Assembly (NCBI GenBank): GCA_031266025.1
Contig: JAISBV010000105.1
Span: 5,986-69,985 of the forward strand
Direction: 5' to 3'
Origin: Eubacteriales Family XIII. Incertae Sedis bacterium
Lineage (GTDB): Bacteria; Bacillota; Clostridia; Peptostreptococcales; Anaerovoracaceae
DNA length: 64,000 nucleotides
The notes under the pieces are model-generated. The model was not told where the DNA came from, made no database searches, and saw only the letters and a list, made by a program, of their open reading frames with translations. Positions 35,836-64,000 of the stretch are shown here, piece after piece (position 1 is the first letter of the stretch; the number at the start of each line of letters is the position of its first letter). Position numbers and translations under genes: made by a program.

Positions 35836-35978
35836 ACAGCGTTTTAATATTCTTTGCCAAAGAGTTGCAATTGAGATTGCAAAGGATTTTTCGGGTAAAA
35901 AAACAAATCGCCTTGCCGAAAGGTTCGCATATAGCGATAAAAGTACGAATCTTGCTAAAAAAAGGAGTTTATCATATC

Positions 35979-39120: not shown

Positions 39121-39179
39121 GTTCGGCAGTTAAATTGCGTTCGCCGCCATCGCAGATCGAAGTATCAATTGTTGGAGGA

Positions 39180-39791
39180 TTATTGCGTTGAAATAGATTC
39201 GCGTTTAATGAACGCGTCAACTGTCATGCGGTCAACTTTCAAAATCCTTGCTATTTGCGTCTTGGGAACCTCGTGCAAAAGCAAGTCGCGTATGAAATCC
39301 TCTTTACCGGACAGCTTAACTTTTGACGATTTACTGCCTATAGGTCTACCTAATACAACGCCTTCGGCACGTTTACGAGCGAGTGCTTCTTTGGTTCGTT
39401 GGCTGATCAGATTGCGCTCTATTTCGGCGGACAAACCGAATGCGAAAGCAAGAACCTTGCTCTGTATGTCATCGCCCAACCGATAGTTATCTTTTATCGT
39501 CCACACGCGGCAGTTTTTGTTCATACAAATATTCAAGATGTCCATAATCATAAACAGCGTGCGGCCTAAACGTGATAGCTCGGCGCATATAATCAGGTCT
39601 CCGTTTTTAACCTTGCTGAGCAGTTCACCGAGTTTACGTTTGTTGTAATTCTTGGTGCCGCTGATTGTTTCCTCAATCCATCCGTTTATGTCGATGCCGT
39701 TGTTCTCCGCGAATTTATTGATTTCGTACCGTTGGTTCTCAACCGTCTGCTTGTCGCTGCTGACGCGAATATAACCGTAAATCATTTGCAT
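39180..39791 (-). CDS. Small serine recombinase (resolvase/invertase family)
   Basis: YGYIRVSSDKQ nucleophile motif, ELSRLGR, and a C-terminal HTH (KTQIARILKVDRMTVDAFI). 203 aa. Confidence 0.9.
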   Translation of the reverse strand: MQMIYGYIRVSSDKQTVENQRYEINKFAENNGIDINGWIEETISGTKNYNKRKLGELLSKVKNGDLIICAELSRLGRTLFMIMDILNICMNKNCRVWTIKDNYRLGDDIQSKVLAFAFGLSAEIERNLISQRTKEALARKRAEGVVLGRPIGSKSSKVKLSGKEDFIRDLLLHEVPKTQIARILKVDRMTVDAFIKRESISTQ

Positions 39792-39807
39792 AACCTCCCA
39801 TTATAAA

Positions 39808-39831
39808 TTAATGATTGGATTTTATCATTAA
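39808..39831. promoter_or_regulatory. Perfect palindrome TTAATGAT-N8-ATCATTAA upstream of the recombinase gene. Candidate recombinase binding or crossover site, or an auto-operator.
   Basis: Read directly. Begins 17 bp upstream of the recombinase start codon. Confidence 0.4.
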
Positions 39832-39863
39832 GGCGAAAGAAAGCAAAGAGTAATTATCGCATC

Positions 39864-39893
39864 TTTACAGCGCAACGCCAAGTGAAGTATAAT
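39864..39893 (+). promoter_or_regulatory. SigA-type promoter for the kinase operon
   Basis: TTTACA, an 18-nt spacer, then TATAAT (39888-39893). Confidence 0.5.
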
Positions 39894-39955
39894 GTGATTA
39901 CTGAAAGCAAGGCAAAACCGATCTGACGCTTACGGGAGATTTCAAGGAGATTTCA

Positions 39956-40795
39956 ATGGATCAAATCAAAGATTTGAAAATACAGGACATATCTCACTTC
40001 GATGTTGAAATAAGCGCGCTGTCGGGTAAAAGACGCAAGGTATATGTCAAAGACAAGCACAAGAAATACATGCTCAAGTTGGCCGACATAAAACAGAACG
40101 GAGAGCAAATACCCTCGCATATATCGGAATATACATCCTGCAAGTTGATTGATGCACTGGGCTATTCTGTACAAGAGGTCTGTTTGGTTACATGGCATGA
40201 AAATGAGGCGGTCTTGATAGAGCTTTTTGACGAGCAGATTGTAACATTCACCGGATTTGGGGATTCAACCCTTGAAAGCGGCAATTTGGAATACGATTTG
40301 GACAGTATGGCGGATGGGTTGGTAAGCGCAAAATTCGCGGAAAACCCCGTATCTTTCTTATGGAATACATTTATTCTCGACAGTTTTGTGTGCAACTTGG
40401 ACAGGCATCCGAATAACTGGGGATTTTTCAGAAAAGGCGACGTTTATTCGCCGGCGCCGCTGTTTGATTTGGGAAATTCTTTGTTCTCTGTAAACGCGAA
40501 CAAATTAAATAAAAATACGGATGTAAATAAATTGATAGAGTTGTACGGTAAATCGGCAATACTTTACAGGGGCGAGCGCTTGGGATTCAGAGATGTATTG
40601 CGCGCGCGCGATAATGAACATTTGCAAAAAGCGTTGGCAGTCTTTAAGACGAAATTAAACGCTGCGGACACAAAGAAAGAATTGCGCGATATTTTGGCAA
40701 ATGTTTTGTTGCTAAATAAAGAATACGATAATTATTGTGAGTTCTTGGAGCAGATGATTGACGCGCAGACGAGGTTTTTCGAGGAGACGCTATGA
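39956..40795 (+). CDS. HipA_C-like serine/threonine kinase consisting of the kinase core only
   Basis: Gly-rich loop ALSGKRRKVYV, lysine block KYMLK, catalytic NLDRHPNNWGF (D149), Mg-binding SPAPLFDLGNS (D171). 279 aa. Confidence 0.8.
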   Translation: MDQIKDLKIQDISHFDVEISALSGKRRKVYVKDKHKKYMLKLADIKQNGEQIPSHISEYTSCKLIDALGYSVQEVCLVTWHENEAVLIELFDEQIVTFTGFGDSTLESGNLEYDLDSMADGLVSAKFAENPVSFLWNTFILDSFVCNLDRHPNNWGFFRKGDVYSPAPLFDLGNSLFSVNANKLNKNTDVNKLIELYGKSAILYRGERLGFRDVLRARDNEHLQKALAVFKTKLNAADTKKELRDILANVLLLNKEYDNYCEFLEQMIDAQTRFFEETL

Positions 40796-41199
40796 AAACC
40801 AAACCTACTGAATTAAAGAGGGACACTTTGTATATAGGTCTTTATACGAACGGTAAGATTTTCAGAATAGGAACATTTTCTTTGCTTCTTGAAAGCAACG
40901 GCAAACACATATATGAATTCGATATCGACGAAGAACGTTACAATGAAGCTATGAAGATGACGGACAGGATAATACCGGGTTTCAATCCAAAGAACGGATG
41001 GAAACAACGGCACGACAAAGAGATGCAATTTGTATACGAACGTACATTTCATCCGCAGCGTCAGGATATGGAAGATATTTTGAAGCCTTACAGTATGACG
41101 CCCAAAGAATACAATAAATGGAATTTTCTTAAAAAGAGCAAAGGAAAATGTTATCAAGATGATTGGCGTTTGACAGATGTTTTTGAGGAAACCTATTGA
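40792..41199 (+). CDS. Small protein coupled to the kinase, possibly a HipS-like / HipA N-terminal-subdomain homologue
   Basis: ATGA overlap with the kinase stop. LYIGLYTNGKIFRIGTFSLLLESNGKHIYEFDIDEERY and HPQRQDMEDILKPYSMTPKEYNKWNFLKKSKGKCYQDDWRL resemble HipA N-terminal segments at motif level only. Confidence 0.45.
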   Translation: MKTKPTELKRDTLYIGLYTNGKIFRIGTFSLLLESNGKHIYEFDIDEERYNEAMKMTDRIIPGFNPKNGWKQRHDKEMQFVYERTFHPQRQDMEDILKPYSMTPKEYNKWNFLKKSKGKCYQDDWRLTDVFEETY

Positions 41200-41427
41200 T
41201 ACGTCGTTCAATTGTCTTAAGGGCAAGCCGGATCTCACTTGAGGTGGGAAATATTCCCGGCGAAGTTATATTGGACTTTTATTGTCTGTTAAGATATAAT
41301 ACATCTTAGTTGTAGGAACAACAACATAAGCCTTGTTTTATGTTCGGGAGCCAAATTCGAAACGCGTCTCGGCCGCCGCGGCGGCGGTAAAAATTAATCT
41401 TAAAAAGCAGAAAGGAACAGTCGCAAA

Positions 41428-42303
41428 ATGAAAAGAGTAGGTTGGATCGGGGTCGGTAAAATGGGCAGTCGTATGTCGCGCAGACTTTTGGAGCAAGGCT
41501 ATACTCTGAATGTCTATGATGTTGATCCGACGAATATCGCGGCGCTCAAAGAGAGCGGCGCGGGCGTCGCCGGAAGTCCCGCGGAGCTTGCAAAAATGTC
41601 GGACTATGTGTTCTCCATGATTCCGAATTCCGCCGTTTTAAAAACGGTATTGGAGCAGGAGAACGGGCTTTTGCAAGTGAGGGGCGGCTATACGCTGATA
41701 GATATGAGCACGCTCGACCCGGCAAGTTCCTTATTGTTCGCGGAAAAATTGTCCGAGGCCGGTATCGGATATCTGCGCGCGCCCGTGACAGGAAGTACGG
41801 AATACGCCGAAAAAGGCACGCTTGGCGTCATGGTTTCGGGAGACGAAGCCCTCTTTAACGAAATTTTACCGCTGTTCAAAATCTTGGGGAACAGACAGAC
41901 ATACCTTGGAGACGCGGAACAGGCGCGGTATATGAAGATTTCCGTTAACCTTATGGTAGGCGTCACCATGCAGATGCTGGCCGAAGCGCTTGTTTTGGGT
42001 GAGAAAGCGGGAATAAAGTGGGACGATTTGATAGATATGATTTCGGACAGCGCCGCAGCGGCGCCCATAGTCAAATTTAAGGCCGATGCGCTCAAAAATA
42101 GAGATTTTTCGCCTATGTCCACGGCGCGCGTAGCGGAAAAAGATTTGCAATTCGCGCTCGATATAGCCAAGGATGAGGGTATATCGCTGCCGCTTACGGC
42201 TTTGACGACGCAGTATTACGCGGCGATGCGTTTGCACGGGCTCGGCGATATCGACTACAGCGGGATTTTACTCCTTAATGAAAAATTCAACAAAATTGAA
42301 TGA
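41428..42303 (+). CDS. NAD(P)-dependent beta-hydroxyacid dehydrogenase (3-hydroxyisobutyrate / 6-phosphogluconate dehydrogenase-like family)
   Basis: Rossmann motif VGWIGVGKMGSRM. Family-typical C-terminal helical domain. Confidence 0.8.
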   Translation: MKRVGWIGVGKMGSRMSRRLLEQGYTLNVYDVDPTNIAALKESGAGVAGSPAELAKMSDYVFSMIPNSAVLKTVLEQENGLLQVRGGYTLIDMSTLDPASSLLFAEKLSEAGIGYLRAPVTGSTEYAEKGTLGVMVSGDEALFNEILPLFKILGNRQTYLGDAEQARYMKISVNLMVGVTMQMLAEALVLGEKAGIKWDDLIDMISDSAAAAPIVKFKADALKNRDFSPMSTARVAEKDLQFALDIAKDEGISLPLTALTTQYYAAMRLHGLGDIDYSGILLLNEKFNKIE

Positions 42304-49965: not shown

Positions 49966-50592
49966 TCATTCCGTCAAACCGTTCCATCTCGCGCTGTCGC
50001 GATCCCACGCGGGAAACTCAAGCACGGACGGCGCGGGCATATCCAATCCGAGCACGGCGATAATATCGGCGTTTCCGTCATAGATGGGCATAAAAGCCGA
50101 CAGGAACGGGGCGCCCTCGTCGTTCTCCCACGCGAATATTTCGGCGGTTCCCCGTCCTTCGAACGCCTCGCGTATCGCATGCGTGGCTTCGCGTCTCGAG
50201 TTGAAACTGTACAACGGCGGGTCGTATCTTGAAACGCTCATGCTGACGATATACTCATCGTTTTCCGCGTCGTAGTCGTAGAGTATATACGCGTTGCGGG
50301 CGCCTGAACCTATGCGCATATCGTTGAGTGTATCAAGACGCTCATAGTACCGGGTATAGTCGGTTTCGAGCCCCGAGGCTATCATATCCCTGTGCCAGTT
50401 CGCGAATTTGCCGTTCAGGCTGCTGCCGCCCGATTTTACATTTTTGAGCGCCCGTTCCATCGTCAGGGTGACCCTGACGGGTATGACGAGTTCGCCCGCG
50501 TCGTCGTACTCAGGCTCGGTCGGGGCGCAGCCGTACAGCGCCGCCGTAAAGCACAATATAAATAGGATTACGATTGCTCTTTTGCGTACCAT
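49966..50592 (-). CDS. Lipoprotein with a Cache/PDC-like fold (tentative)
   Basis: Lipobox AALYGC. Pattern AYILYDYD...SAFMPIYDGNADIIAVLGLD is typical of Cache sensor domains. Confidence 0.5.
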   Translation of the reverse strand: MVRKRAIVILFILCFTAALYGCAPTEPEYDDAGELVIPVRVTLTMERALKNVKSGGSSLNGKFANWHRDMIASGLETDYTRYYERLDTLNDMRIGSGARNAYILYDYDAENDEYIVSMSVSRYDPPLYSFNSRREATHAIREAFEGRGTAEIFAWENDEGAPFLSAFMPIYDGNADIIAVLGLDMPAPSVLEFPAWDRDSARWNGLTE

Positions 50593-50803
50593 GGTATGCT
50601 CTTTCTCCTGTAAGGGTTAACAAAAAACGTGTTGTTTCCTAAGAGTTTATCATATTATTGGTTTTTGGGCAAGGTTCGATTCGTTCGATTCGCGAATATT
50701 ATACTTTCGCGAGACATATTGCTATGATATAATGACCGTAAAGCGGTCATTATTGATTAAAACGCTCTCCGGCTGCGCATATTGTAAACATGAGAGGAGC
50801 AAC

Positions 50804-52465
50804 ATGAAGATAAAGTTTTGCGGAGCGGCGACCTCCGTTACCGGTTCTTGCCACCTTGTTTCCGGGGACGGATTTAATGTGTTGTTGGACTGCGGACAAT
50901 TTCAAGGATCAAAGGCGAGCGAGGCGCTCAATTTCGAGGAATTTCCGTTTAATCCCGCCGATATAGACTTCCTGTTGCTCAGCCACGCGCATATCGACCA
51001 CTGCGGGCGTATACCCCTGCTCGTCAAGAGGGGTTTTTCCGGCAAAATATATTGCACGGACGCCACGGCGGACTTGGCGCGCGTGATGCTTATGGACAGC
51101 GGCTACATTCACGAGAAAGAAACCGAATGGAAGAACCGTAAGGCCGAGCGCGCGGGAAAACAGCTCAGTTCGCCGCTGTATACGGTAAAAGACGTTGAAA
51201 ACGCGCTTAAGTATCTTGCGCCCGTTATGTACGATCAATTGACAGAGCCGAACGACAAGGTGAGATTCGTGTTTAATGAGGCCGGTCATATTCTCGGTTC
51301 GGCGATCACGGAGCTTTGGGCGGAAGAGGACGGACGCACGACAAAGTTGGTCTATTCGGGCGACCTCGGCGTTGCGAACCGTCCGATTCTGCGCAATCCC
51401 AAGATCATCAAAAAAGCCGATTACGTCGTCATGGAGAGCACGTACGGGAACAGGCGCCACGGGTCTTTGGACATGGGCGTAGACCGTCTCATGGATATAG
51501 TGCTGAGCACGGCGCGAAAGGGCGGAACAGTCGTGATTCCGTCATTTGCCGTGGGGAGAACACAGGAGCTGATATTCGAGTTCAACCGTTATTATGAGAA
51601 GAACGAAGGGGCGCGGCGCGAGCTTGACGACATCATGTTCTATGTGGACAGCCCCATGGCTACGACCGCGACGGAGGTCTTTCGCAGGAACGCGCAGGTA
51701 TTCGACGACGAGACAAAGAATTATATATTGAAAGGCGACAATCCTCTTGACTTCAAGAATCTGCGTTTCACGCGCACAAGCGATGAATCGCGAGCCTTGA
51801 ACGACCGCGAGGAGCCTAAGGTCATACTGTCCGCAAGCGGCATGTGCGAAGCCGGCCGTATACGGCATCACCTCAAGCATCACCTGTGGAATCCCAAATC
51901 GAGCATAGTGTTCGTCGGTTATCAGGCCGAGGGCACGCTCGGACGCGCGCTGCTTGACGGTTTGAAAAATGTGACGCTGTTCGGGGAAGAAATATGCGTG
52001 AACGCGGATATATACAACCTTGAGGGCTTTTCGGGTCACGCTGATCGCGACGGTCTTATGGATTGGATTTCCGGCTTTCACACCGAACCCGAGATGATAT
52101 TCCTCGTTCACGGCGAACTTGACCAAAAACGCGCTCTCGCCGCAGGTATAAAACAGGAGCTCGGCCATGAAACAACGGCGGTGGAATGCGTTTCCGAATT
52201 TGATCTGAACCGAGGCGCCGCCATAACAGGTCATGATATACGGCGAAGCTTCGCGGAACAAGAGCAGCTTTCATCCGTCAGGGAAAAATTGGCGTCGATA
52301 CACGGCGCCATCGAGAGCATATTGTACAATACAAGCTTGGTATTCGGCGCGAATCTGCCGCCCGAGCGTGTTATTGAGATAGGCGACGCCGTGCGTGTAT
52401 TGGAGAAGGATACACTGCGCTTGGGTTCGGCGGTGAGTCTCGAAAATACCGGAACAGCCGAATAA
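50804..52465 (+). CDS. MBL-fold beta-CASP RNA-metabolising hydrolase
   Basis: Internal ATG behind GAGAGGAG. HAHIDHCG motif, ESTYG, beta-CASP region, and SGHAD near the C-terminus. Confidence 0.85.
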   Translation: MKIKFCGAATSVTGSCHLVSGDGFNVLLDCGQFQGSKASEALNFEEFPFNPADIDFLLLSHAHIDHCGRIPLLVKRGFSGKIYCTDATADLARVMLMDSGYIHEKETEWKNRKAERAGKQLSSPLYTVKDVENALKYLAPVMYDQLTEPNDKVRFVFNEAGHILGSAITELWAEEDGRTTKLVYSGDLGVANRPILRNPKIIKKADYVVMESTYGNRRHGSLDMGVDRLMDIVLSTARKGGTVVIPSFAVGRTQELIFEFNRYYEKNEGARRELDDIMFYVDSPMATTATEVFRRNAQVFDDETKNYILKGDNPLDFKNLRFTRTSDESRALNDREEPKVILSASGMCEAGRIRHHLKHHLWNPKSSIVFVGYQAEGTLGRALLDGLKNVTLFGEEICVNADIYNLEGFSGHADRDGLMDWISGFHTEPEMIFLVHGELDQKRALAAGIKQELGHETTAVECVSEFDLNRGAAITGHDIRRSFAEQEQLSSVREKLASIHGAIESILYNTSLVFGANLPPERVIEIGDAVRVLEKDTLRLGSAVSLENTGTAE

Positions 52466-52631
52466 TTCAGAAATTTTCAACTTGCCGGAATTGTGTTATT
52501 TCAGAAAAACAAGCAAAATACGTAGAAAGACGCGGGTATCTCCGGTATAATATTACTGCTCAAAGGTTTAATCAAGACCGGTCACGGTATATTAAACCGC
52601 AGAGGCCGCAGCGTTAGTAAGAGGCATACCA

Positions 52632-54425
52632 ATGTCGTTACTTAAGGACATTTCAACCGGCGTGCAACAGGTGGCCGAGGCTATATCCATAGCTATAGGC
52701 GTAGAGGTAGAAATTGTCGACGATGAGCTTACGCTGATCGGAGGAACCGGCGCGTATCGCGACAAGGTGGGCGCAAAGGAAGAATCGGGCAAACTTGACG
52801 GGGAATATTTGTACGCGCGAATGCTGCGAAGCGATGTGACCGCGTATATAGAGGACACGGGCAAGTATCCGAATTACGGCGCGTCGCTGCTCACGGGCGC
52901 GGCGCGTGAGCTTGCCGAAATATGTACGCCCATCAAACTTCACGGCGCCGTCATAGGCGTTATAGGGCTTGTGGCTGTCCGGGAAGAGCAGAGGGACATA
53001 CTGCGCGACCGGCACGGAAGCATGGCTACCTTTGTCGAAAAGATGGCCGACCTGCTTGCGGCGAAAGCCGATCAGCGGGCGCTGCTGAACGCCGCCGAGA
53101 GCGCCATGAACGAGTTGACGACGGTTATAGAAACTACGCACGAGGGTATATTCGACGTTGATCGCAACGGTTATATCAAGCACTGCAATAACACGGCCGA
53201 GAATCTGTTTTCCGTATTAAGGGGCGATATCATCGGCAGTCATATCAGCAAATACATGCTCGGAGCGCCGGCGCTTGACGTTATCAAGACAGGAAAAGGT
53301 TATACTGAACGAGAAGAGGTTTATAAGACGTGGATGGGTACGCGTCATTTCATAGTGACCGCCAAACCCTATTTCAGCGGTGAGGAAGCCAAGGGCGTCG
53401 TGATATCGTTCAGGGATATAGAAGAGGCTAAAAAGCTCGTCTACAGTATTAACACGGGCGCGCTCAAATACACGTTTGACGATATCATAGGCGACAGCGA
53501 AGCCATGCGGCGCATAAAGAATCAGGCGCTGATAACGGCTCGCGGCAGCTCCACGGTTCTTATAACGGGCGAGAGCGGCACGGGCAAAGAGATGTTCGCG
53601 AAAGCCATACATTATTCCGGTCTGCGCAACAGCGGCCCGTTTGTAACCGTCAACTGCGGCGCGATACCCGAAAACCTGCTTGAGAGCGAGTTGTTCGGCT
53701 ACGAAAAAGGCGCGTTCACGGGCGCGAGCGAGAACGGCAAGGCCGGAAAATTCGAATTGGCGGACGGCGGCACCATATTCCTTGACGAGATAGGGGATAT
53801 GCCGTTGCATCTTCAAGTGAAGATATTGCATGTGCTGCAGAATATGCGTTTTGAGCGCGTGGGCGGCAGTAAGACCGTTATCGTGGATGTACGCGTCATC
53901 GCGGCTACAAACAAGGATCTCGAAGCGATGATTCGCCGCGGTGAGTTCAGGGAAGACCTGTATTACCGTCTCAGCGTTATACCTCTTACGGCGCCGCCGC
54001 TAAGGGGCAGACGTGAGGATATTCGTCTTTTGACGGACTATTTTCTGGACAAATACAACGCTTTTATGAGCAAGAAAATCGTGGGATTCACGGATCGGGC
54101 CGAGAGCGTGTACGAAAACTACGATTGGCCGGGCAACGTCAGAGAGCTTGAAAACGCTGTGGAATACGGGGTCAACATGGCGCACGGCGACAGGATAGAC
54201 ACGGACGCCGTACCCGCGCGGCTTATGCGCGACGGCGGAGCGGCTTCGGCGGCCAAAGAGGAAGTTTCGCTTTCGGAGCGGCTCCGTTTGTACGAAAAGG
54301 AGCTGATAAAGGCAAAGCTTAAGCAATACGGCGGAGACGGCCGCGCCAAGAACGCCATAGCGAAAGAACTTGGGATATCGAGGGCGACGCTGTATCGCAG
54401 ACTGACGGAGCTTGACCTCATGTAG
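52632..54425 (+). CDS. Sigma54-dependent transcriptional activator (sensor, PAS, AAA+, Fis-type HTH)
   Basis: [23 protein letters not shown] (GAFTGA loop), and C-terminal [16 protein letters not shown]. Confidence 0.9.
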
Positions 54426-54487
54426 TTTTAGGCCTTTGGGTTTGCAGTATTCGGAAAAATCACGTATAACAGAAGGAGGTATTAACA

Positions 54488-55852
54488 ATGTCATTGAGAG
54501 AATCTTTACCGAAAGTAACAACAGCTTTGCCGGGCCCCAAGGCAAAGGCGGCGCTTGAGAAGAGATCCCGCGTTATCCCGGTAGGCATCAAGTCCATCTA
54601 TCCGCTTGTCATAAAGCGCGGCGAGGGCGCCATGTTCGAGGATATAGACGGGAATATCTTTCTTGATTGGGTCGGGGGAGTGGGTGTAATGAATATCGGC
54701 TACAGTCATCCCGAGCTTATTGCGGCCGTGAAGGAACAATCCGAAAAATATTTTCATTCCATGATGAACATCACGACTCACGAAGGTTATCTGAATTTGG
54801 CGGAAGCCCTGAACGCCGTCGCGCCCGTTAAGGGGGACGTCAGGAATACTATGTTCGTAAACAGCGGCGCCGAAGCCGACGAGAACGCGGTCAAGATATC
54901 AAGGGGATTCACGGGCAGACCGAATATCATAGTGTTTACGGGCGCTTTCCACGGACGCACAATGCTCACGATGACGATGACGGCCAAGAAAGCCTACGCG
55001 GTCGGCATGGGGCCTTTCCCGGACGGCGTCTACAGGGTGGAGTTTCCGAACGTGTACAGGAGACCCGCCGGCATGAGCGAGGCGGATGCCGTCGCTTACT
55101 ATGTCAGCAAGTTGGAGGAAGTGTTTATCGAGGTTTCGCCGGCCCAGTACGTGGCGGCTATCGTGTTCGAACCCGTGCAGGGCGAGGGCGGCTTTGTCCC
55201 GGCGCCTATTGAGTGGGTCAAAGCGGTCAGAGCCATATGCGACAAGCACGGCATAATGATGGTTACGGACGAAGTTCAGACGGGCTTCGCGCGCTCGGGC
55301 CGTATGTTTGCTTCCGAATATTATAAAGAGGCCGGCTGCGCTCCCGACATCATAACCATGGCAAAATCCATCGCGGGCGGACTGCCGCTCAGCGCCGTCG
55401 TCGCCCGCAAGGAGATATTCGACGGTACGCCGGGAGGCACCATAGGCGGCACATATTGCGGTAACGCCGTCGCCGTCGCGTCCGCGCTGAAGGTTCTCGA
55501 AGTAATGAAGAAAGAGGATTATCCCGGCAAGGCTCTGAAAATCGCCGACAAGTGCGTGAAGCGTTTCAACGAGTGGAAGAACACATACGAATGTGTCGGA
55601 GACGTCAGAGGCGTCGGCGCCATGCTCGGCATCGAATTTGTCAAAACCAAGGCGGGTAAAGAGCCGTTCGCCGAGATAGTGAACGCCATTGTGGCGGGCG
55701 CCTGGACGCGCGGGCTCGTGCTCGAAAGCGCGGGAACCTACGGCAACGCGATCCGCTTCCTGTGTCCGCTCTGCGTTACGGACGCTCAGCTTGACGCGGG
55801 TCTCGACATATTCGAACAGTCACTTAAGGACGCTGTAAAGAACGTCAAATAG
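54488..55852 (+). CDS. Class III PLP aminotransferase (4-aminobutyrate/omega-amino acid type)
   Basis: GVGVMNIGYSHPE, DEVQTGFARSG and MAKSIAGGLPLSAV (PLP lysine). Confidence 0.85.
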   Translation: MSLRESLPKVTTALPGPKAKAALEKRSRVIPVGIKSIYPLVIKRGEGAMFEDIDGNIFLDWVGGVGVMNIGYSHPELIAAVKEQSEKYFHSMMNITTHEGYLNLAEALNAVAPVKGDVRNTMFVNSGAEADENAVKISRGFTGRPNIIVFTGAFHGRTMLTMTMTAKKAYAVGMGPFPDGVYRVEFPNVYRRPAGMSEADAVAYYVSKLEEVFIEVSPAQYVAAIVFEPVQGEGGFVPAPIEWVKAVRAICDKHGIMMVTDEVQTGFARSGRMFASEYYKEAGCAPDIITMAKSIAGGLPLSAVVARKEIFDGTPGGTIGGTYCGNAVAVASALKVLEVMKKEDYPGKALKIADKCVKRFNEWKNTYECVGDVRGVGAMLGIEFVKTKAGKEPFAEIVNAIVAGAWTRGLVLESAGTYGNAIRFLCPLCVTDAQLDAGLDIFEQSLKDAVKNVK

Positions 55853-55930
55853 TTTTCGCGCCCGCCGTTCCGGAAGCCGGATCGGCGCTTCTCGGCTCGG
55901 CGTTCGCAAAGCAGATGATATTTATAGCCG

Positions 55931-55969
55931 CGCCGCCCGGATTGCAGAAATCTGCCAATCCGGGCGGCG
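55931..55969 (+). terminator. Candidate intrinsic terminator
   Basis: 14-bp stem CGCCGCCCGGATTG / CAATCCGGGCGGCG. The T-tract is weak. Confidence 0.45.
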
Positions 55970-56057
55970 TTGTGCGGCTTTCCTTCTCCGGCACATCTTT
56001 AATAAATTACAATATTGCACATCTTTTCATTAAATTTCATTTTATCTTCTTAAAATC

Positions 56058-56086
56058 TTGCATATGGGCCCGGTATATGTTATAAT
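56058..56086 (+). promoter_or_regulatory. SigA-type promoter for the CYTH-glyA unit
   Basis: TTGCAT, a 17-nt spacer, then TATAAT (56081-56086). Confidence 0.6.
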
Positions 56087-56119
56087 GCCTTCGTTGTGAT
56101 ATGTAGGAGGTAATACGCG

Positions 56120-56746
56120 TTGGAAATCGAATTGAAATATAAGATACGCGATAAAGAATTGCTGACGGTCATTTTGGACGACGACATTGTAACGGGCGTT
56201 GAGGAAAAGGGTACCCGCGAACAGGTATTTATGAAAGCCGCGTACTTCGATACGGAAGACTATGTGCTGTCCGAGAACGATATAGCGTTCCGCGTCCGCA
56301 TGGAAGGCAGCCGTATCATAGCGTCGCTCAAGTGGAACGACGCGGGCGGCGACGGTCTGCATACGCGTGAAGAGATCAATGTTCCCGTCGACGACCCCGC
56401 CTGTTTTCTCATGCCCGACCCCGGTATATTCAGGGAGAGCGAAGTGGGCAAAGACGTAGAGGAGCTGCTCAACGGCAAACCGCTCGTCAGTATCCTCGAA
56501 ACGAAATTCTTAAGAAGCCGCGTCAGGGTGGACACGGGCGGCGCCATCTGTGAGATTTCACTTGACGACGGCGACATCATCACCGATTTCGGAGAACGAC
56601 ATATCACGGAAATGGAAGTGGAGCTGTTTTCGGGCGACCAAGAAGGTCTTCTGAAGTTTGGCGCCGCGCTGTCCGAAAAATACGCTCTCGAACCTGAGAC
56701 AGAGAGCAAATACGCGCGCGGGCTCAAACTGCTCGGAAGAGCTTAG
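56120..56746 (+). CDS. CYTH-domain triphosphate tunnel metalloenzyme
   Basis: TTG start 10 nt after GGAGG. N-terminal EIELKYKI (ExExK) motif and alternating charged beta-strands. Confidence 0.75.
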   Translation: MEIELKYKIRDKELLTVILDDDIVTGVEEKGTREQVFMKAAYFDTEDYVLSENDIAFRVRMEGSRIIASLKWNDAGGDGLHTREEINVPVDDPACFLMPDPGIFRESEVGKDVEELLNGKPLVSILETKFLRSRVRVDTGGAICEISLDDGDIITDFGERHITEMEVELFSGDQEGLLKFGAALSEKYALEPETESKYARGLKLLGRA

Positions 56747-56780
56747 TCAATAGTTTGTTACATTAAACAGGAGGACGTAT

Positions 56781-58043
56781 ATGTATTTTAACCACCTCGA
56801 CACAGTCGACCCCGATATCGCCGCGATGATCAAGCGGGAAATGGGCAGGCAGGAGCACAAGCTTGAGATGATAGCTTCGGAGAATTTCGCGAGCCCCGCC
56901 GTTATGGAGGCCTGCGGAAGCGCGCTGACAAACAAATACGCCGAAGGTTATCCCGGCAAGCGTTATTACGGCGGCTGTGAGCATGTGGACGAGGTGGAAA
57001 GCTTGGCGATAGAACGCGGCAAGGCGCTGTTCGGCGCGGAATACGTCAATGTGCAGCCGCATTCCGGTTCGAGCGCCAACCTCGTTGTGTACTACGCGCT
57101 GCTGTCTCAGGGCGATACCATACTCGGTATGGATTTGTCCAACGGCGGGCATCTGACCCACGGCAGCAAAGCCAATATGTCCGGCAAATACTTCAACTTC
57201 GTATCTTACGGAATTGATGTTGACAGCGAAATGATAAATTACGAGCAGGTCTTGGCGCTTGCGAAAAAATGCAGACCAAAGATGATAGTCGCCGGAGCGA
57301 GCGCCTATCCGCGGACAATAGAAGCCGACAAGTTCAGGGAGATCGCCGACGAAGTGGGCGCGCTGCTTATGGTGGATATGGCGCATTTCGCGGGTCTTGT
57401 GGCCGGCGGACAGCATCCGAATCCCGTAGAGCACGCGCATGTAGTCACCTCCACAACGCACAAGACGCTGCGCGGGCCGAGGGGCGGCGTGATATTCGCG
57501 AAAGCGGAGTTTGAAAAACAACTGAACAAGGGCGTGTTTCCGGGTATGCAGGGCGGCCCTTTGATGCACATCATAGCGGGTAAGGCGGTTTGCTTCAAGG
57601 AGGCGACCCGGCCCGAATTCAAAGATTATCAAAAGCGCGTGCGCGGTAACGCGTATGTGTTGGCGCGTGAGCTTATGAACAGAGGCTTTCGTCTCGTATC
57701 AAGCGGCACGGATAACCATCTCGTGCTTGTAAATCTTATGAATAAAGGTATTACGGGCAAGGACGCCGAGATTTATTTGGACGCCGCGAATATCACGACA
57801 AACAAAAATACGATATTGAACGATCCGAACGGGCCTAACGTGACGAGCGGCATCAGGCTCGGAACGCCCGCGCTGACGACGCGCGGCTTCGGCGAGGATG
57901 AAACCGTGCGCGTGGCGGAAGCCATATCGCTTGTGCTCGATCACCCGGGCGACGTCGCCTACGCGGACAAAGCGCGCGCCATAGTCAAAGAATTGTGTGA
58001 CGCGTTTCCGTTATATAATGTAAGGCAGTTCGATATCAAATAA
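56781..58043 (+). CDS. glyA: Serine hydroxymethyltransferase
   Basis: [26 protein letters not shown] and [14 protein letters not shown] (PLP lysine). Confidence 0.95.
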
Positions 58044-58061
58044 ATGACCCGGCAACAGTAC

Positions 58062-58132
58062 GGTCATTCCGGGCTCGTCCCGGAATCCAAAAATATACTA
58101 TGGATTCCGGGACAGATCTTCCCGGAATGACC
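58062..58132. repeat. Family B hairpin repeat (GTCATTCCGGG...CCCGGAATGAC)
   Basis: GGTCATTCCGGGCTCGTCCCGGAATCC...GGATTCCGGGAC...CCCGGAATGACC. Same motif as the core of 45569-45660. Confidence 0.75.
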
Positions 58133-58152
58133 GGGAAATAGTATATGTAAAT

Positions 58153-59442
58153 ATGGGAAAAATTGATCTCGAAAAACTCATATTATTCGGTAATGTGCGC
58201 GAGGACGCCGCAGTTTGCAAGGCGGTCGAGATATCCGGCGCGCTGTACAGCGAAAGCTCCTCGCTTTCCGCGAGCGACGGGCCGGTGCGCATGTATTATG
58301 ACGTGCAGCGAGAGCTTTTGTCAAAATATGAAAATATACGGGGCAACCGAGGCGCAAAACGCGCGCCGACATACTGGAAACGCCATATTTTGGGACTCAT
58401 CATCGGGGATGAGAACGCGTTTTCACTCTCTTCGGAACGCGGCTGTTTCGACAATGATCTCATAGCCTTGGCCGCTGTTGAAATACCGACGCTGAAAGCG
58501 CTCTATGAATTGGACTGGAATCGCATAGCCGCTGTATTCGGCGGCGAGACCTCATGCGTCGCGAACATGCGTCCAACGCCGGCCGAAGGCGAATCCGCCG
58601 GCGCCGCGCCGGACGCCGTGCTTTTGACGCCCGACGCGAACGACGCGGCCCGTGCTCTGGCCGAATACTACTCGCGTGAAGGCTGCGGCGTATTGGCCGA
58701 TTACGCCGCGTTCAGATGGGAGACCGGGCTTGTGGGCGTGAGAGACCGCGATTCCGTCAGTTTCGATGATTTGATCGGTTATGAACGGCAGAAGGAACAG
58801 ATCATCGAAAACGCGGAATTTTTCGTCAGCGGAAAACCGTACAGCAATATGCTACTTTATGGGGATCGCGGTACGGGCAAATCGTCGAGCGTGAAGGCGC
58901 TTTTGAATATGTTCAGACCGCGCGGCCTCAGGCTCGTGGCTTTGCCAAAGGCGGATATAGACGCTCTGCCGGTTCTGACGGACGCGCTCGCGCCGCGCGG
59001 CTGCAAGTTCATCGTATTTATAGACGATCTGTCATTCGAAGAAAACGAAACGGGGTACAAATCCTTTAAATCCGCGCTTGAAGGCAGCGTGCGTTCGCAG
59101 CCCGCGAATATTCTGGTTTGCGCCACGTCGAATCGCCGCAATATCATAAAAGAAGTTTGGCGTGAGCGGGAAGACAGGGATGAGATCAACTTGAACGACG
59201 CGCTTCAGGAAAAGCGTTCATTGGCTGATCGCTTCGGCTTGACGGTCACGTTCAGCGCGCCCGACAAATCCGAATACCTTGATATCGTGCGCGGCTTGGC
59301 GCGGCGCGAAGGGCTTGAGACCGACGAGAATGAGCTCACGGGCTTGGCCTTGCAGTGGGAGCTTAGGCACAGCGGACGCTCGGGGCGCGCGGCGCGGCAA
59401 TTCGTAAACTATATGCTGTCCAGAACGGCGTTCGAGCGTTGA
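58153..59442 (+). CDS. DUF815-type AAA ATPase
   Basis: YGDRGTGKSS Walker A, FIVFIDDLSFE Walker B and CATSNRRN. The start is uncertain because the RBS is weak. Confidence 0.7.
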   Translation: MGKIDLEKLILFGNVREDAAVCKAVEISGALYSESSSLSASDGPVRMYYDVQRELLSKYENIRGNRGAKRAPTYWKRHILGLIIGDENAFSLSSERGCFDNDLIALAAVEIPTLKALYELDWNRIAAVFGGETSCVANMRPTPAEGESAGAAPDAVLLTPDANDAARALAEYYSREGCGVLADYAAFRWETGLVGVRDRDSVSFDDLIGYERQKEQIIENAEFFVSGKPYSNMLLYGDRGTGKSSSVKALLNMFRPRGLRLVALPKADIDALPVLTDALAPRGCKFIVFIDDLSFEENETGYKSFKSALEGSVRSQPANILVCATSNRRNIIKEVWREREDRDEINLNDALQEKRSLADRFGLTVTFSAPDKSEYLDIVRGLARREGLETDENELTGLALQWELRHSGRSGRAARQFVNYMLSRTAFER

Positions 59443-59488
59443 TTCGTCCGCATTCGAAACATATGCGCGACATTGGAGGTTCCGGCGT

Positions 59489-60232
59489 TTGAGAAGTTTC
59501 CTGCGAAATCCCTTTTCCCTGATACTGATCCTTATTATGGCCGTACGCGCCACGAGAGGCGGCAGCTTCAGCGACCCCGTCGCTTGGCTTTTCGATATGA
59601 TCATGCTCATTCCGGGGCTTGCCATAGGCATTTCCGTACATGAGTTTGCCCACGCGAAGGCCGCGGATATGCTCGGTGATCCTACGCCGCGCACGGAAGG
59701 GCGCGTTACGCTGAACCCTGTCAGGCATTTCGACGCCATAGGGTTTTTAGCTTTGCTGCTTATAGGCTTCGGCTGGGGCAAACCCGTCCGGATATCACCG
59801 TACAATTTCAAAAATATACGCAGGTCAAGCTTTATCGTGTCCATAGCCGGCGTCGTAATGAACTTCATAATCGCTTTCTTGTTTTTCGGAATATATTACG
59901 GTTTCAATATTTACGTGTTTCGCGGCGGCTTCATAAATTCGCAATTGTCCGCCGCGCTTACGCCCATCCTTATGAACATAATTTGGATCAATCTGGCGCT
60001 TATGATATTCAACCTGCTGCCCGTTCCTCCGCTTGACGGCTTCAACATCCTAACGGAGATATTCGACCTCAGGCGTTATCAATTTTGGAATACCCTGTAC
60101 AATTACGGCTTTGCTATACTGATTGTTCTGATTATGCTCGGCGTTACGGGCCGCGTTATGACGCCGGCGCTCTCGTTTGTCGTCAACTTTATGGATACGG
60201 TATGGAGGTTCCTGCTGCAGTCCTTGTTATAG
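59489..60232 (+). CDS. M50-family (site-2 protease-like) membrane metalloprotease
   Basis: TTG start 10 nt after GGAGG. HEFAHA zinc motif and NLLPVPPLDG. The last 30 codons lie in direct-repeat copy 1. Confidence 0.85.
   Translation: MRSFLRNPFSLILILIMAVRATRGGSFSDPVAWLFDMIMLIPGLAIGISVHEFAHAKAADMLGDPTPRTEGRVTLNPVRHFDAIGFLALLLIGFGWGKPVRISPYNFKNIRRSSFIVSIAGVVMNFIIAFLFFGIYYGFNIYVFRGGFINSQLSAALTPILMNIIWINLALMIFNLLPVPPLDGFNILTEIFDLRRYQFWNTLYNYGFAILIVLIMLGVTGRVMTPALSFVVNFMDTVWRFLLQSLL
60129..60217. repeat. 89-bp direct repeat, left copy (attL-like), inside the M50 gene 3' end
   Basis: Base-for-base identical to 62302-62390. Confidence 0.95.
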
Positions 60233-60419
60233 CGCCCCGTCCATTTTCATTATTGGGGCGATTTCAAAAAGTCAATGGTTTTGGGAAAATGCAAAACAAA
60301 TGTAAACAACCTCCGTTTTGAGCGGAGGTAAAGAAAAAAATCGAAAGTTTCGGATTGATTGAATTGCAATCTGTTCGGAGTTTTCGAGGAAATTCAATAC
60401 AATATTCGGAGGTATGTTT

Positions 60420-61556
60420 ATGATAAATTCAATCGCATTTAAGGATTTCCGTGGTCTTGACGATGTTACCCTTTCGCTGTCGCAAGTCACTATGCTTACA
60501 GGGACAAACGGCGTGGGAAAAACCTCGGTACTTGAAGGTCTTTACTGCCTTTTCTCAGAGACAAGATTGGATGTTTCCCCGCTGTCCCGTTACAACAAAT
60601 CAATAGGAATAATGATCAATCAGGCGGCAAATGTTCCGGTTGGTTTCGCAGCAAGACAGAATTACAACTATAGGTTGTTCTGGGACGAGTGTCCTTCATA
60701 CGAACAAGCAGAATGTTCGGTATCCGCCAAGACAAACAACGGGCTTGCTTGGTCGTGGAAGTATCGCAAAGCAAAACTATCAGATTTGAGTTCGCAGATT
60801 ACGATGAACAACCCTGTGTCAGTAGATTCATCTACAGAATTTGCTCTTTGGAACTGGCAGACTACCGGACGAGTAAATGATAAGAAATCGCATCAATTTT
60901 TAAATGTTAATGAAAAGTTTAGCCGTGCACAAATCCTTGCGCAGGACGGTGGGTTATATCTGTTACCACTCGAAGGCAGAGCAATGAGCATTTGTAAGTA
61001 TCTTGATTTTGCATCAATTCGCTTGCAGCCTCAGAAGCTTTCTTTCAACACATCAAAGCAATTAACTGAGGCGTTGAAAATTATCAATCCTCGCGTCACT
61101 GATGTTCGCCTAACTGACATTGAAAGCGGATTGTCTGTTGTGCTTGATGACAGCAATTCTGTTACTCTTGGCACGATTGGGAATGGCGCAGTTACTTGGG
61201 CAAGTGCCTTGATTGCAATCTTTGATGTGATTGAATCTATAAAGAATGAACCACAAATGGATACGCCCGTTCTTTTGCTGATTGATGAAATGGGAGCAGG
61301 AATACATTACAGCATAATGCTTGATGTATGGAAGTATATTAATGCTTTCGCAAAACAAAACCCTAAAGTGCAGTTTGTTTTTACTTCTCATAGCGATGAT
61401 TGTATAAGGGCATACTGCAAAGCATTCTCGGATAGCGATGTAGCAAGAATAGTCCGCTTACACCAAAGCGCAGTAGACCATAAGGTTATTCCAACAGACT
61501 ATTTGAAAAGTCAGTTCAGTAAAATTGCTGAAGGGGACTGGGAGGTGCGCGGATGA
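60420..61556 (+). CDS. ABC/SMC-like AAA ATPase (AAA_15/AAA_21 type) of a two-gene candidate defence module
   Basis: ATG 60420 lies 7 nt after GGAGG; ATG 60414 is too close. N-terminal IAFKDFRGL plus Walker A GTNGVGKTS, Walker B VLLLIDEMGAGIH, H-loop FTSHS. Confidence 0.8.
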   Translation: MINSIAFKDFRGLDDVTLSLSQVTMLTGTNGVGKTSVLEGLYCLFSETRLDVSPLSRYNKSIGIMINQAANVPVGFAARQNYNYRLFWDECPSYEQAECSVSAKTNNGLAWSWKYRKAKLSDLSSQITMNNPVSVDSSTEFALWNWQTTGRVNDKKSHQFLNVNEKFSRAQILAQDGGLYLLPLEGRAMSICKYLDFASIRLQPQKLSFNTSKQLTEALKIINPRVTDVRLTDIESGLSVVLDDSNSVTLGTIGNGAVTWASALIAIFDVIESIKNEPQMDTPVLLLIDEMGAGIHYSIMLDVWKYINAFAKQNPKVQFVFTSHSDDCIRAYCKAFSDSDVARIVRLHQSAVDHKVIPTDYLKSQFSKIAEGDWEVRG

Positions 61557-62260
61557 CTAATAGATATAAATGGCTACTTGTTGTTGAGGGTGAAACGGAT
61601 GTTACAACATATAAGGACTTGTTAAAACGGTATGGTGTACCATCGGGGGATATTGCTTTATTCTCGGCAAGTGGAAAAGGCAACGTATGTAATGCTGAAA
61701 ATTGGGCATTCGTTCAATTCGATGATACTGATTTGCTCAGTACACTCATTCAAGATTCTGGTCGCACAGATTTTTGTGGCGTGATTTTGCTTGTGGATAC
61801 TGACGCAGATGGTAGTGCTATTTTTGAAAATTATAAGCGAAATACAGACACACGCCTACACTATGTTACAACGAGTAAGCCGCAAAAAGAACAAAGAGGG
61901 GAATGTTGGTATTTAGATTCACTAAACGGCGTTCAGGAAATACCCGTTTTGGGTATTGCGGTTCCGATGAATGGATCAGGATGTTTGGAAACAGACTTAC
62001 TTAACTCATATGGATTTCCGGTAGAAGGTCAAGATGAATATGCACAGTTTGTTGATATAATACAGAAATCGAGCTCTAATTGGCAAATTCCGCTTAAAAA
62101 TGATGGCACGAATTGGTGGAAGGAAAATAGCAAGGCAAAACTGGACAAGTTTATTTACTCCGCATTATCTCATGGATTTATGGTATCTCGCAGAACGCCG
62201 CAATTACCCTGTGAACCCTCGGTTATCGGGTATATTAAATTGGCTATCGGAATCTCGTAA
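61553..62260 (+). CDS. Toprim-like (OLD/DUF4435/DUF4276-like) protein coupled to the ATPase
   Basis: ATGA overlap with the ATPase stop. LLVVEGETD (E12/E14/D16), SASGKGNV, LLVDTDADG (D82/D84/D86), GCLETDLL (E146). Confidence 0.6.
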   Translation: MTNRYKWLLVVEGETDVTTYKDLLKRYGVPSGDIALFSASGKGNVCNAENWAFVQFDDTDLLSTLIQDSGRTDFCGVILLVDTDADGSAIFENYKRNTDTRLHYVTTSKPQKEQRGECWYLDSLNGVQEIPVLGIAVPMNGSGCLETDLLNSYGFPVEGQDEYAQFVDIIQKSSSNWQIPLKNDGTNWWKENSKAKLDKFIYSALSHGFMVSRRTPQLPCEPSVIGYIKLAIGIS

Positions 62261-62301
62261 ATACTGATACGACAACTATCTGTGAAGGGTCTTGTGCCTC
62301 A

Positions 62302-62390
62302 TGATTATGCTCGGCGTTACGGGCCGCGTTATGACGCCGGCGCTCTCGTTTGTCGTCAACTTTATGGATACGGTATGGAGGTTCCTGCTG
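62302..62390. repeat. 89-bp direct repeat, right copy (attR-like). Orphan duplicate of the M50 gene 3' end.
   Basis: Identical to 60129-60217. In the M50 frame it continues NPLLS and stops at TAG 62406-62408. Confidence 0.95.
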
Positions 62391-62609
62391 AATCCGCTGC
62401 TTTCGTAGTTACGGTTACCGATACTTTTGAGCTGAGGATCTGTCGGAAAATAACCTATGCATTTGACTTGCCCTTTTGTTCCCCGGCCGTGTTGCCGGAA
62501 CCCTTGAATACTACAAGTATTCGCGGAACCCGGCGCCTTGCCGGGACACAAAATTGCTGCGCCAACTGTACACTTTATTTTCCGACAGACCCTGAGTTCC
62601 GGCGATAAA

Positions 62610-62636
62610 TTAGCACTCTAATGTTTAGAGTGCTAA
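62610..62636. promoter_or_regulatory. CIRCE operator (HrcA binding site)
   Basis: Perfect TTAGCACTC-N9-GAGTGCTAA, 74 bp upstream of the clpB start. Confidence 0.9.
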
Positions 62637-62709
62637 TTTTGTGGTATAAACAGTTTAATAGGTTTTCGGCGGATTCGGTTCCGGTGCGTATGAGGAGGGA
62701 GGCACGATC

Positions 62710-64000
62710 ATGAATTTCGAAAAATTTACGCAGAACGCACAATCTGCGATGTTGGAATGTCAGAATATAGCGATTTCGGAGGGGCATCAGCAAATAGACG
62801 CGGAGCATATGCATCTTGCCCTGCTCATGCAGCAAGACGGTCTTATTCCCAAGCTTCTGAAACTTATGGACGTGAGCGCGGCGGAGATGATAGGGGAGCT
62901 GCAGTCGGAACTTGAGCGGCTGCCCAAGGTGCAGGGCGCGGGCGACAACATGTACACGACGCGGCGGCTCAATCAGATATTGGCGGCGGCCGGCAAGATA
63001 GCGGGGGATTTCAAGGATGAATTTGTCAGCGTGGAGCACATATACCTCGCCGTCATAGACGAGAGAGGAACGGCGGGCGCGAAGATACTGCGCAGACACG
63101 GCGTGACGCGCGAGAGCTTTCTGCGGGCGCTGACGACTGTGCGCGGCAATCAGCGCGTTACGAGTCAAAACCCCGAAAACAACTATGACGCGCTGAACAA
63201 ATACGGACGTGATCTCGTGCAAATGGCGAGGGAGGGTAAGCTCGACCCCGTTATCGGCCGCGACGCGGAGATACGCAATACTGTGCGTATACTGTCCAGA
63301 AGGACGAAGAATAACCCTGTTCTGATAGGCGAACCCGGCGTCGGCAAGACGGCCGTAGTCGAGGGATTGGCGCAGCGCATAAGGAGCGGGGATGTGCCGG
63401 AAGGGCTGAAGGACAAGACGATATACGCCCTCGACATGGGCGCGCTCATAGCCGGCGCCAAGTTTCGAGGCGAATTCGAAGAACGTCTTAAATCCGTGCT
63501 GAACGAAATAGAGAAGTCGGACGGCCGCATACTGCTGTTTATAGACGAGCTGCACAATATCGTCGGCGCGGGCAAGGCCGAGGGCGCGATGGACGCGGGC
63601 AACCTGCTCAAGCCGCTTTTGGCGCGCGGCGAGCTGCACTGCATCGGCGCCACGACCTTGGACGAATACAGGAAGTATATAGAGAAGGACGCCGCGCTCG
63701 AACGCAGATTTCAGAAGATATTCGTAGACCAGCCCACGGTTGAGGATACGATATCCATATTGCGCGGCCTGAAAGAACGATTTGAGATACATCACGGCGT
63801 CCGTATTACGGACGGAGCGCTCATAGCCTGCGCGACGCTTTCGGATCGTTACATCAGCGACCGCTTTCTGCCGGACAAAGCCATAGACCTCATGGACGAG
63901 GCCGCCGCCAAGATCCGCACGGAGATAGACAGCATGCCGGCCGAGCTCGACGAAGCGGCCCGCAAGATCATGCAGCTTGAAATAGAGAAGCAGGCGCTCG
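62710..64000 (+). CDS. clpB: ClpB disaggregase, N-terminal about 430 codons. The gene runs off the window and is absent from the ORF track.
   Basis: ATG behind GAGGAGGGAGG. Hand translation gives [39 protein letters not shown]..., Walker [10 protein letters not shown], Walker B LLFIDELH, and the start of the M-domain. Confidence 0.9.

Follow-up and report, generated by a model that had tools for sequence, protein, structure and literature searches.

The locus described here lies near the right end of a 64,000-nt stretch of DNA (the window) from a Eubacteriales Family XIII. Incertae Sedis bacterium, taken from contig JAISBV010000105.1 of assembly GCA_031266025.1 (positions 5,986 to 69,985). 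It comprises an intact gene for an M50/site-2 protease, a short AT-rich segment carrying two overlapping genes, an orphaned duplicate of the 3' end of the protease gene, and the start of clpB. Two direct repeats of 89 bp, named R1 and R2, stand on either side of the AT-rich segment and are identical at 89 of 89 positions. The features of the locus are given below in window coordinates, with the contigs of two relatives, L001 and L079, as reference.

59489–60232, plus strand: M50/site-2 protease gene, intact, 247 aa from a TTG start or 231 aa from the start annotated by the Joint Genome Institute (JGI), ending ...RFLLQSLL-stop
60129–60217, plus strand: repeat copy R1, the last 30 M50 codons ahead of the 4-codon tail, 74/89 identical to L001
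60218–60243, plus strand: QSLL tail, stop codon and 11 nt (cagtccttgttatagcgccccgtcc), 26/26 identical to L001 10697–10722; the synteny with L001 stops at 60242/60243
60244–60395, no strand assigned: AT-rich leader of 152 nt, 36% GC, with a terminator-like hairpin of the minus strand at 60309–60329
60414–61556, plus strand: cargo gene A, an ABC-type ATPase (AAA_15/AAA_21) of the AbiLi / PDC-M38A type by Pfam and PADLOC
61553–62260, plus strand: cargo gene B, a 235-aa Toprim-like putative nuclease (DUF3226 / AbiLii / PDC-M38B-like), whose start overlaps the stop of gene A (ATGA)
62261–62301, no strand assigned: spacer of 41 nt between cargo and R2, the last base of which completes an ATG at the junction
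62302–62390, plus strand: repeat copy R2, belonging to an orphan M50 3' fragment
62391–62408, plus strand: NPLLS-stop tail (aat ccg ctg ctt tcg tag), homologous by alignment to the HPLLSI tail of L079
62436–62592, no strand assigned: palindrome of 157 bp resembling a miniature inverted-repeat transposable element (MITE), with 18-nt terminal inverted repeats GG(A/G)TCTGTCGGAAAATAA and TGA at both sides
62610–62636, plus strand: operator of the type controlling inverted repeat of chaperone expression (CIRCE; TTAGCACTC-N9-GAGTGCTAA), found as a regular-expression match; synteny with relatives restarts at 62608 (blastn against L001 and L079)
62710–64000, plus strand: 5' part of clpB, cut by the window end, identified by ClpB homologues and by the annotated neighbours in L001 and L079

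Each half of the 89-bp repeat occurs exactly twice in the window, and 100 shuffles gave 0 matches. Local alignments of the 80 nt upstream and the 80 nt downstream of the two copies were no better than shuffles (shuffle fractions 0.47 and 0.71, respectively), so all four repeat edges are sharp, with no residual similarity beyond them; a 13-nt repeat shared by positions 60316 and 62425 was rejected as being at chance level. GC content between the repeats (60200–62300) is 0.39–0.46, about 40% overall, and that of the flanks is 0.51–0.61, about 55%. The segment between the repeats holds two genes only, both on the plus strand and overlapping by 4 nt. Upstream, the M50 open reading frame (ORF) matches Pfam Peptidase_M50 (7.7e-13) and is 100% identical to the protein entries P0001/P0241; downstream, R2 continues in the M50 frame behind the ATG created at the junction (62301), which yields a hydrophobic orphan ORF of 35 aa (62301–62408; MIMLGVTGRVMTPALSFVVNFMDTVWRFLLNPLLS) that ends in NPLLS and is annotated by JGI as a hypothetical protein. 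The overall layout can be written A-R-tail1-cargo-X-R-tail2, that is, two alleles of one gene end placed around foreign DNA, where R is the repeat, A the DNA ahead of its first copy and X the DNA ahead of its second.

Much of this had been described in the original prediction, which was made from the sequence of the window alone. The perfect repeats, R1 as part of an intact M50 gene ending QSLL-stop at 60232, R2 as an orphan ending NPLLS-stop at 62408, the AT-rich interval with its two coupled genes and the lack of any recombinase between the repeats all held in the ORF list, the GC scan, and the Pfam and PADLOC scans. The limits that it drew for the insert, 60218–62301, are narrower than those of the window-specific DNA, placed at 60243–62607 by comparison with L001. 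What it took for native-looking intergenic DNA after R2 is mostly the MITE-like palindrome, which folds into one long hairpin (-74.3 kcal/mol, z = -8.1) and has a related copy downstream of clpB in L079 (6593–6660). No Rfam family was assigned to this element, a scan of 60000–62800 giving one sub-threshold match, on CIRCE.

The two short non-coding pieces of the insert are without known kin among the loci compared. The 152-nt leader had no match in L085 (the contig with the closest cargo homologue, described below), in L001, in L081 (another relative) or in any other locus compared, and its candidacy as a vapC remnant or as kin of the L081 flank was dropped, the similarity not being significant. 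The hairpin at 60309–60329, followed by a T-rich run, is terminator-like on the minus strand only, upstream of cargo genes that lie on the plus strand; it might have been left behind by a previous occupant of this spot that lay on the minus strand. The 41-nt spacer likewise showed no homology to L085, to the DNA upstream of R1 or to the other loci compared.

The nearest M50 proteins are 83%, 78% and 73–75% identical to that of the window, and the nearest in a species-representative genome is 61% identical. Metagenome contigs scanned with an alignment of the M50 C terminus yielded distant relatives only, exact-protein look-ups of the M50 protein, the 380-aa ATPase and serine hydroxymethyltransferase gave no match, and the ClpB search did not return a 100% protein. 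The contents of the M50–clpB spacer in the relatives, listed by contig, are as follows.

L001: M50 83% identical, tail QSLL; VapBC, on the minus strand, between M50 and clpB
L081: M50 78% identical, tail QSLL in different codons; unrelated AT-rich DNA, the contig stopping short of clpB
L079: M50 73% identical, tail HPLLSI (cat cct ttg ctt tca); spacer empty (172 nt)
L082: M50 74% identical, tail QSIL; spacer empty, about 60 nt to CIRCE
L002 and L124: M50 more distant, tail not compared; spacer empty

These empty, VapBC-bearing and otherwise filled states indicate that the M50–clpB spacer is a small spot of gene turnover, ancestrally empty, and the segment is, as had been proposed, a lineage-specific foreign insertion. 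The empty junctions come from relatives at 74% M50 identity or less, with other tails. An empty M50–clpB junction ending in NPLLS, which the original prediction had led us to expect, was sought among the relatives and not found, the nearest tail being the HPLLSI of L079, the 73% relative. The order of genes itself also varies, as M50–clpB synteny differs in two further contigs, L080 and L151. In L151 (1–1062; Family XIII, ClpB 93%), CIRCE-clpB is preceded by genes for tRNA-Met, tRNA-Pro and tRNA-Trp (minus strand) and a glyoxalase gene instead of M50, from which it follows that the M50–clpB linkage is not universal in the clade.

The comparison with L001 is the closest available and sets the left edge of the window-specific DNA. 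Synteny between L001 and the window runs at 84–90% identity from 50003 to 60242 and then again from 62608 on; the M50 gene of L001 ends in cag tcc ttg tta tag cgccccgtcc, the same sequence as window 60218–60243, and is followed by VapBC and then by CIRCE-clpB. The VapBC genes (PIN and PhdYeFM; L001 10706–11345) lie on the minus strand with the vapC stop overlapping the M50 stop, and their left junction falls at the same nucleotide as that of the window insert, after tagcgccccgtcc. L001 has no repeat and no second M50 fragment. The identity of the QSLL tail and the 11 nt behind it was considered as a possible shared mobile end and rejected, since identical runs of at least 32 nt occur about nine times in the neighbouring 3.5 kb of the alignment.

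The two cargo genes resemble a known type of abortive-infection pair. Gene A, whose true start is likely 60420, giving 378 aa (380 aa from the ORF start), matches Pfam AAA_15 (5.9e-16) as well as AAA_21 and is 100% identical to protein entry P0121. It is covered over its full length by two PADLOC profiles, PDC-M38A (3.3e-28; residues 3–379, profile 1–383/383) and AbiLi (1.5e-26; profile 1–340/340), and the AriA, PtuA, Old and GajA profiles match it mainly at the N-terminal Walker A region; a sequence search of the PDB gave marginal matches only, to PtuA and OLD ATPases. Gene B by itself has weak Pfam matches to DUF3226 and Toprim and matches PDC-M38B at 8.6e-4 to 2.6e-3. Across 22 members of its family, PDC-M38B is matched by 11 (best 8.5e-8), AbiLii by six (best 1.9e-5) and DUF3226 by 15. 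This family is very small, with 41 clusters at 50% identity among 1.84 billion representatives in an exhaustive HMMER search.

Residues E12-G13, D16, D82-x-D84, E146 and D198-K199 are invariant in the 22-member alignment of gene B and form a Toprim-like E...DxD signature. An AlphaFold model of gene B built from this alignment is confident, with a predicted local distance difference test (pLDDT) score of 93.4, and a Foldseek search of the PDB and BFVD with the model gave no neighbour below E = 0.03 and no significant Toprim-nuclease neighbour. The basis for calling the protein Toprim-like is therefore motifs and weak profile matches, not fold comparison. By analogy with better-known systems, the pair is presumably an abortive-infection or anti-phage system, which would work with the ATPase as the part that holds and senses and the Toprim partner as nuclease effector.

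Both its low GC content and the scatter of its homologues across phyla mark the cargo as foreign and horizontally acquired. Homologues of the ATPase at 50–74% identity were found in Chitinispirillales, Spirochaetia, Peptococcaceae, Ruminococcus, Holosporaceae and Polyangiaceae, among others. Comparison of the cargo with phages, plasmids and IMG/VR gave no DNA match and, at the protein level, distant matches only, on small Klebsiella plasmids. The closest cargo homologue (88% at the amino acid level) lies on L085, a 21-kb contig from a sister sample, where the pair directly follows a restriction-modification module of Eco57I methylase and ResIII helicase, a setting that lends the presumed anti-phage role contextual support; a paralogous system is also present in sample SRR14710922 (L084). 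Other genes in L085 (1–17167) encode a TraG-like P-loop ATPase, a MobA/MobL relaxase, a large serine recombinase with DUF4368, and TnpW, neighbours that amount to the context of an integrative and conjugative element (ICE) or integrative and mobilizable element (IME). DNA homology between the window and L085 is limited to 60396–62238, at 82.8% identity, and it follows that the travelling unit is the bare gene pair.

The two sequences that follow the copies of the repeat carry most of the information on how the insert arrived. Both are genuine M50 tails: the two nearest relatives end in QSLL, the HPLLSI of L079 aligns with NPLLS, and tails of the xP[ILV]L type are common in M50 relatives. The insert thus begins exactly where the homologous gene continues, as recombination based on homology predicts and a target-site duplication does not. 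Perfect direct repeats directly flank a foreign segment, which speaks for duplication of the target by a transposase or another staggered-cut mechanism. Yet the insert has no transposase and its ends lack terminal inverted repeats, 89 bp is far beyond known target duplications, and a bona fide M50 tail in frame at the start of the insert is something that target duplication cannot explain, which effectively refutes this explanation. The idea of the original prediction that the insertion restores the 3' end of its target gene survives in part: a complete alternative M50 tail does lie on the insert side of R1 and the gene is intact, but the QSLL tail with its 11 nt, at 26/26 identity to L001, is not visibly foreign.

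The same anatomy could belong to a site-specific integrative element, the repeats being attL and attR of an element that targets the M50 3' end and whose integrase either acts in trans, as for a cis-mobilizable element (CIME), or was lost by decay of a larger island. Such elements are classically recognised by direct repeats drawn from the 3' end of a gene, together with an alternative tail on the side of the insert, and CIMEs are a documented category. In addition, VapBC in L001 is joined at the same nucleotide, and the element in L085 that carries the closest relative of the cargo is ICE/IME-like and encodes both a relaxase and a large serine recombinase. However, an integrase is absent from the insert, whose non-coding DNA of 152 nt plus 41 nt is too short even for a pseudogene of one, and the VapBC insertion in L001 comes without a second M50 fragment. 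The coding region in question diverges fast (74/89 to the nearest relative), and an element with a perfect 89-bp core there would be confined to one species. Large serine recombinases leave only a few base pairs of identity. The sole recombinase in the 64-kb window is a small resolvase at 39180–39791, 20 kb away in a separate low-GC island, and the rest is housekeeping.

Searches for reuse of the site point the same way. Among the other M50 loci fetched with flanks (up to ~145), none has a direct repeat of at least 22 nt touching M50, so that the proposal of the M50 3' end as an att site found no backing. A degenerate 43-nt pattern of the core gave 0 matches in metagenome_contigs and 0 in viral_contigs, collections evidently without the source samples (L001 is absent from them too), and the 89-bp core did not turn up elsewhere. 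Beyond this one occurrence, nothing supports the notion of a mobile cassette. Of the two mechanisms put forward in the original prediction, a Campbell-type crossover fits best, and the trans-acting recombinase is unsupported, with no cognate integrase or reused site; taken as a whole, we consider a site-specific integrative element unlikely.

The reading we prefer, to which we would give a probability of about one half, is that the repeat marks the stretch over which the intact M50 3' end is identical to an orphaned fragment with a different natural allele of the last codons, the two having been brought together by homology-driven insertion or displacement. DNA of a related strain would enter through homology in the flanking core gene, using host recombination functions, along one of two routes. 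By the first, a circle bearing an M50 3' end and the cargo would integrate through one Campbell-type crossover located inside the 89-bp tract. By the second, a linear piece would recombine through homology on one side and illegitimately on the other (homology-facilitated illegitimate recombination), and the old 3' end would be displaced downstream. Under a single crossover in R, or a left-anchored version of the second route, NPLLS would be the resident tail, and the incoming DNA, R-QSLL-...-cargo-X, would stem from a close relative in which the cargo already lay just 3' of M50. In a mirror-image version, the cargo would already have been present and R-NPLLS-...-CIRCE-clpB would have entered, with clpB as the right anchor and the illegitimate joint on the left at 62301|62302.

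Several observations weigh against homology-driven insertion. In a neighbour-joining tree of M50 proteins built with the tail left out, the window protein groups with the QSLL proteins P0002 and P0003, with HPLLSI elsewhere, and the tree thus favours QSLL as the native, lineage-typical tail, whereas simple crossover logic makes NPLLS the resident one; only the mirror-image version or an earlier recombinant allele reconciles the two. The reading also needs two M50 alleles identical over 89 bp with unrelated tails, or later gene conversion, and the second allele was not observed. The relatives found include no genome of this species, the closest M50 being 83% identical, and an independent metagenome contig passes from the repeat to the QSLL side without a branch. 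Sliding-window identity of the flanks against L001 and L079 gave no clear recombination breakpoint.

The contig in question bears on a further explanation, a mis-threaded assembly. The source is a metagenome-assembled genome (MAG) from short reads ('Clostridiales Family XIII', MDR1246992-4), and the true arrangement might have been an empty site, written A-R-B, together with a separate circle or tandem of 2.17 kb (X-R-Y), or else two strains merged over the 89 bp; the two tails could in principle come from two coexisting strains. The independent k=31 Logan contig L083 (1–1722; SRR14710922) equals window 60129–61850 exactly, beginning at the first base of the repeat and continuing only to the QSLL side. 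Its right end is a 30-nt overlap with the paralogous system (88% at the amino acid level) in the same sample, which indicates that the contig ends mark branches of the graph, and a left end at the first base of R is what would be expected if both the A|R and the X|R junctions were present in the reads. Its branch-free passage may reflect removal of a short unitig between R and the multi-copy MITE by graph simplification; it could also reflect low coverage, or an X-R-Y circular or tandem form in SRR14710922.

An assembly artefact nevertheless has much to overcome. The X|R junction has no overlap from which a false join could arise and must therefore be present in reads, and the same 80,372-bp contig is present in both JGI and NCBI. 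A circle of 2.2 kb without a replication gene is unlikely to persist, and even if the arrangement were an artefact, X-R would be real biology, as an excised or tandem form. We therefore consider the duplication real, X and A sharing no sequence for a false join, and rate the mis-threaded assembly as improbable. A bolder version of homology-driven insertion would see in the segment a recombinase-free unit with a portable M50 3' end as its 'homing arm', leaving as a 2.17-kb circle by recombination between the repeats and, once transferred, re-inserting with host RecA alone into any strain that has a matching M50 gene, which would be restored every time; we regard this as very improbable.

Elsewhere in the window lies a second low-GC island (35500–41500; 37–46% GC), for which no long flanking repeats were found. 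In it, a phospholipase D (PLD)-like nuclease ORF (35865–36971) overlaps a type IIG restriction-methyltransferase (36877–39120; REase_MTase_IIG, 1.9e-130), followed by the small serine recombinase (39180–39791, minus strand) mentioned above and a HipA_C-like protein (39956–40795) that matches PADLOC PDC-M03A. A KAP-family P-loop NTPase (13688–14947; PADLOC PDC-S20, 4.5e-56) lies amid housekeeping genes for purine biosynthesis.

If homology-driven insertion is the correct reading, the locus would be a clean, datable snapshot of a minimal defence pair entering a chromosome without mobile-element machinery, the orphaned gene end being the sole scar, and would add one example of host recombination at flanking core genes driving the turnover of defence genes. 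The small, rare Toprim-like family gains a confident model without a solved relative and could merit testing beside AbiL and PARIS. Were the 'homing arm' version true, minimal defence cassettes would have a general route of spread that needs no integrase of their own and that has as yet no name.

Among known defence systems, the cargo is most readily set beside AbiL of Lactococcus (AbiLi/AbiLii) and PDC-M38, which share with it the arrangement of two co-oriented, overlapping genes, an ABC/Rad50-like ATPase followed by a small Toprim-like protein; it differs from them in a partner that matches weakly (E about 1e-3) and belongs to a rare family. AbiL has been grouped with PARIS as ABC ATPase plus TOPRIM systems (PMC13064643), and PARIS consists of the ABC ATPase AriA and the Toprim/DUF4435 tRNA nuclease AriB (PMC11464382). 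The cargo resembles PARIS in its two-gene layout, in the logic of sensor ATPase and Toprim effector (PMC11464382), and in the match of the AriA profile to the N-terminal Walker A region. However, the AriA match to gene A is partial (residues 3–50 or 255–330 only), no DUF4435 match was found in the cargo, AriB was matched by one of the 22 members of the gene B family (0.0059), and the proteins here have 378 and 235 aa compared with 53–55 kDa for AriA and 35 kDa for AriB (PMC11464382, PMC10802454). We accordingly file the pair as AbiL / PDC-M38-like and not as PARIS, and its sequence suggests a new member of the AbiL / PDC-M38 group.

The insertion footprint is like three known arrangements: Campbell-type insertion-duplication, hotspots that lack mobile-element genes, and the orphan 3' ends of Rhs/T6SS effector loci. 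With CIMEs and integrase-less islands the locus shares flanking direct repeats and the lack of integrase or transfer genes, but neither a cognate ICE nor an M50-targeting integrase was found, its repeat is a perfect one of 89 bp, and the site is not reused in relatives. Recombination at flanking core genes is what maintains the hotspots without mobile-element genes (PMC5635113), and the M50–clpB spacer is like them in having differing or absent content between the same conserved neighbours (occupied in the window, L001 and L081; empty in L079, L082, L002 and L124). In those hotspots, a double crossover leaves no duplication, whereas here one junction is non-canonical and an 89-bp repeat is left.

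The orphan 3' ends of Rhs, contact-dependent inhibition (CDI) and type VI secretion system (T6SS) loci come with the same order of parts, namely a gene that is intact but has gained a new 3' end, with new genes behind it, and then the displaced old fragment, which retains some of the conserved part; they require no recombinase (PMC5361080). In Rhs/T6SS effector loci, these orphans have been attributed to homology-facilitated illegitimate recombination with sequential displacement (PMC5361080). The present case differs in that the gene encodes a housekeeping membrane protease of which the last 4–5 codons differ, the cargo is functionally unrelated to it, and there is a single instance instead of an array. 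Overall, the finding looks explicable by known processes, not as a new kind of mobile element, and would leave current concepts unchanged.

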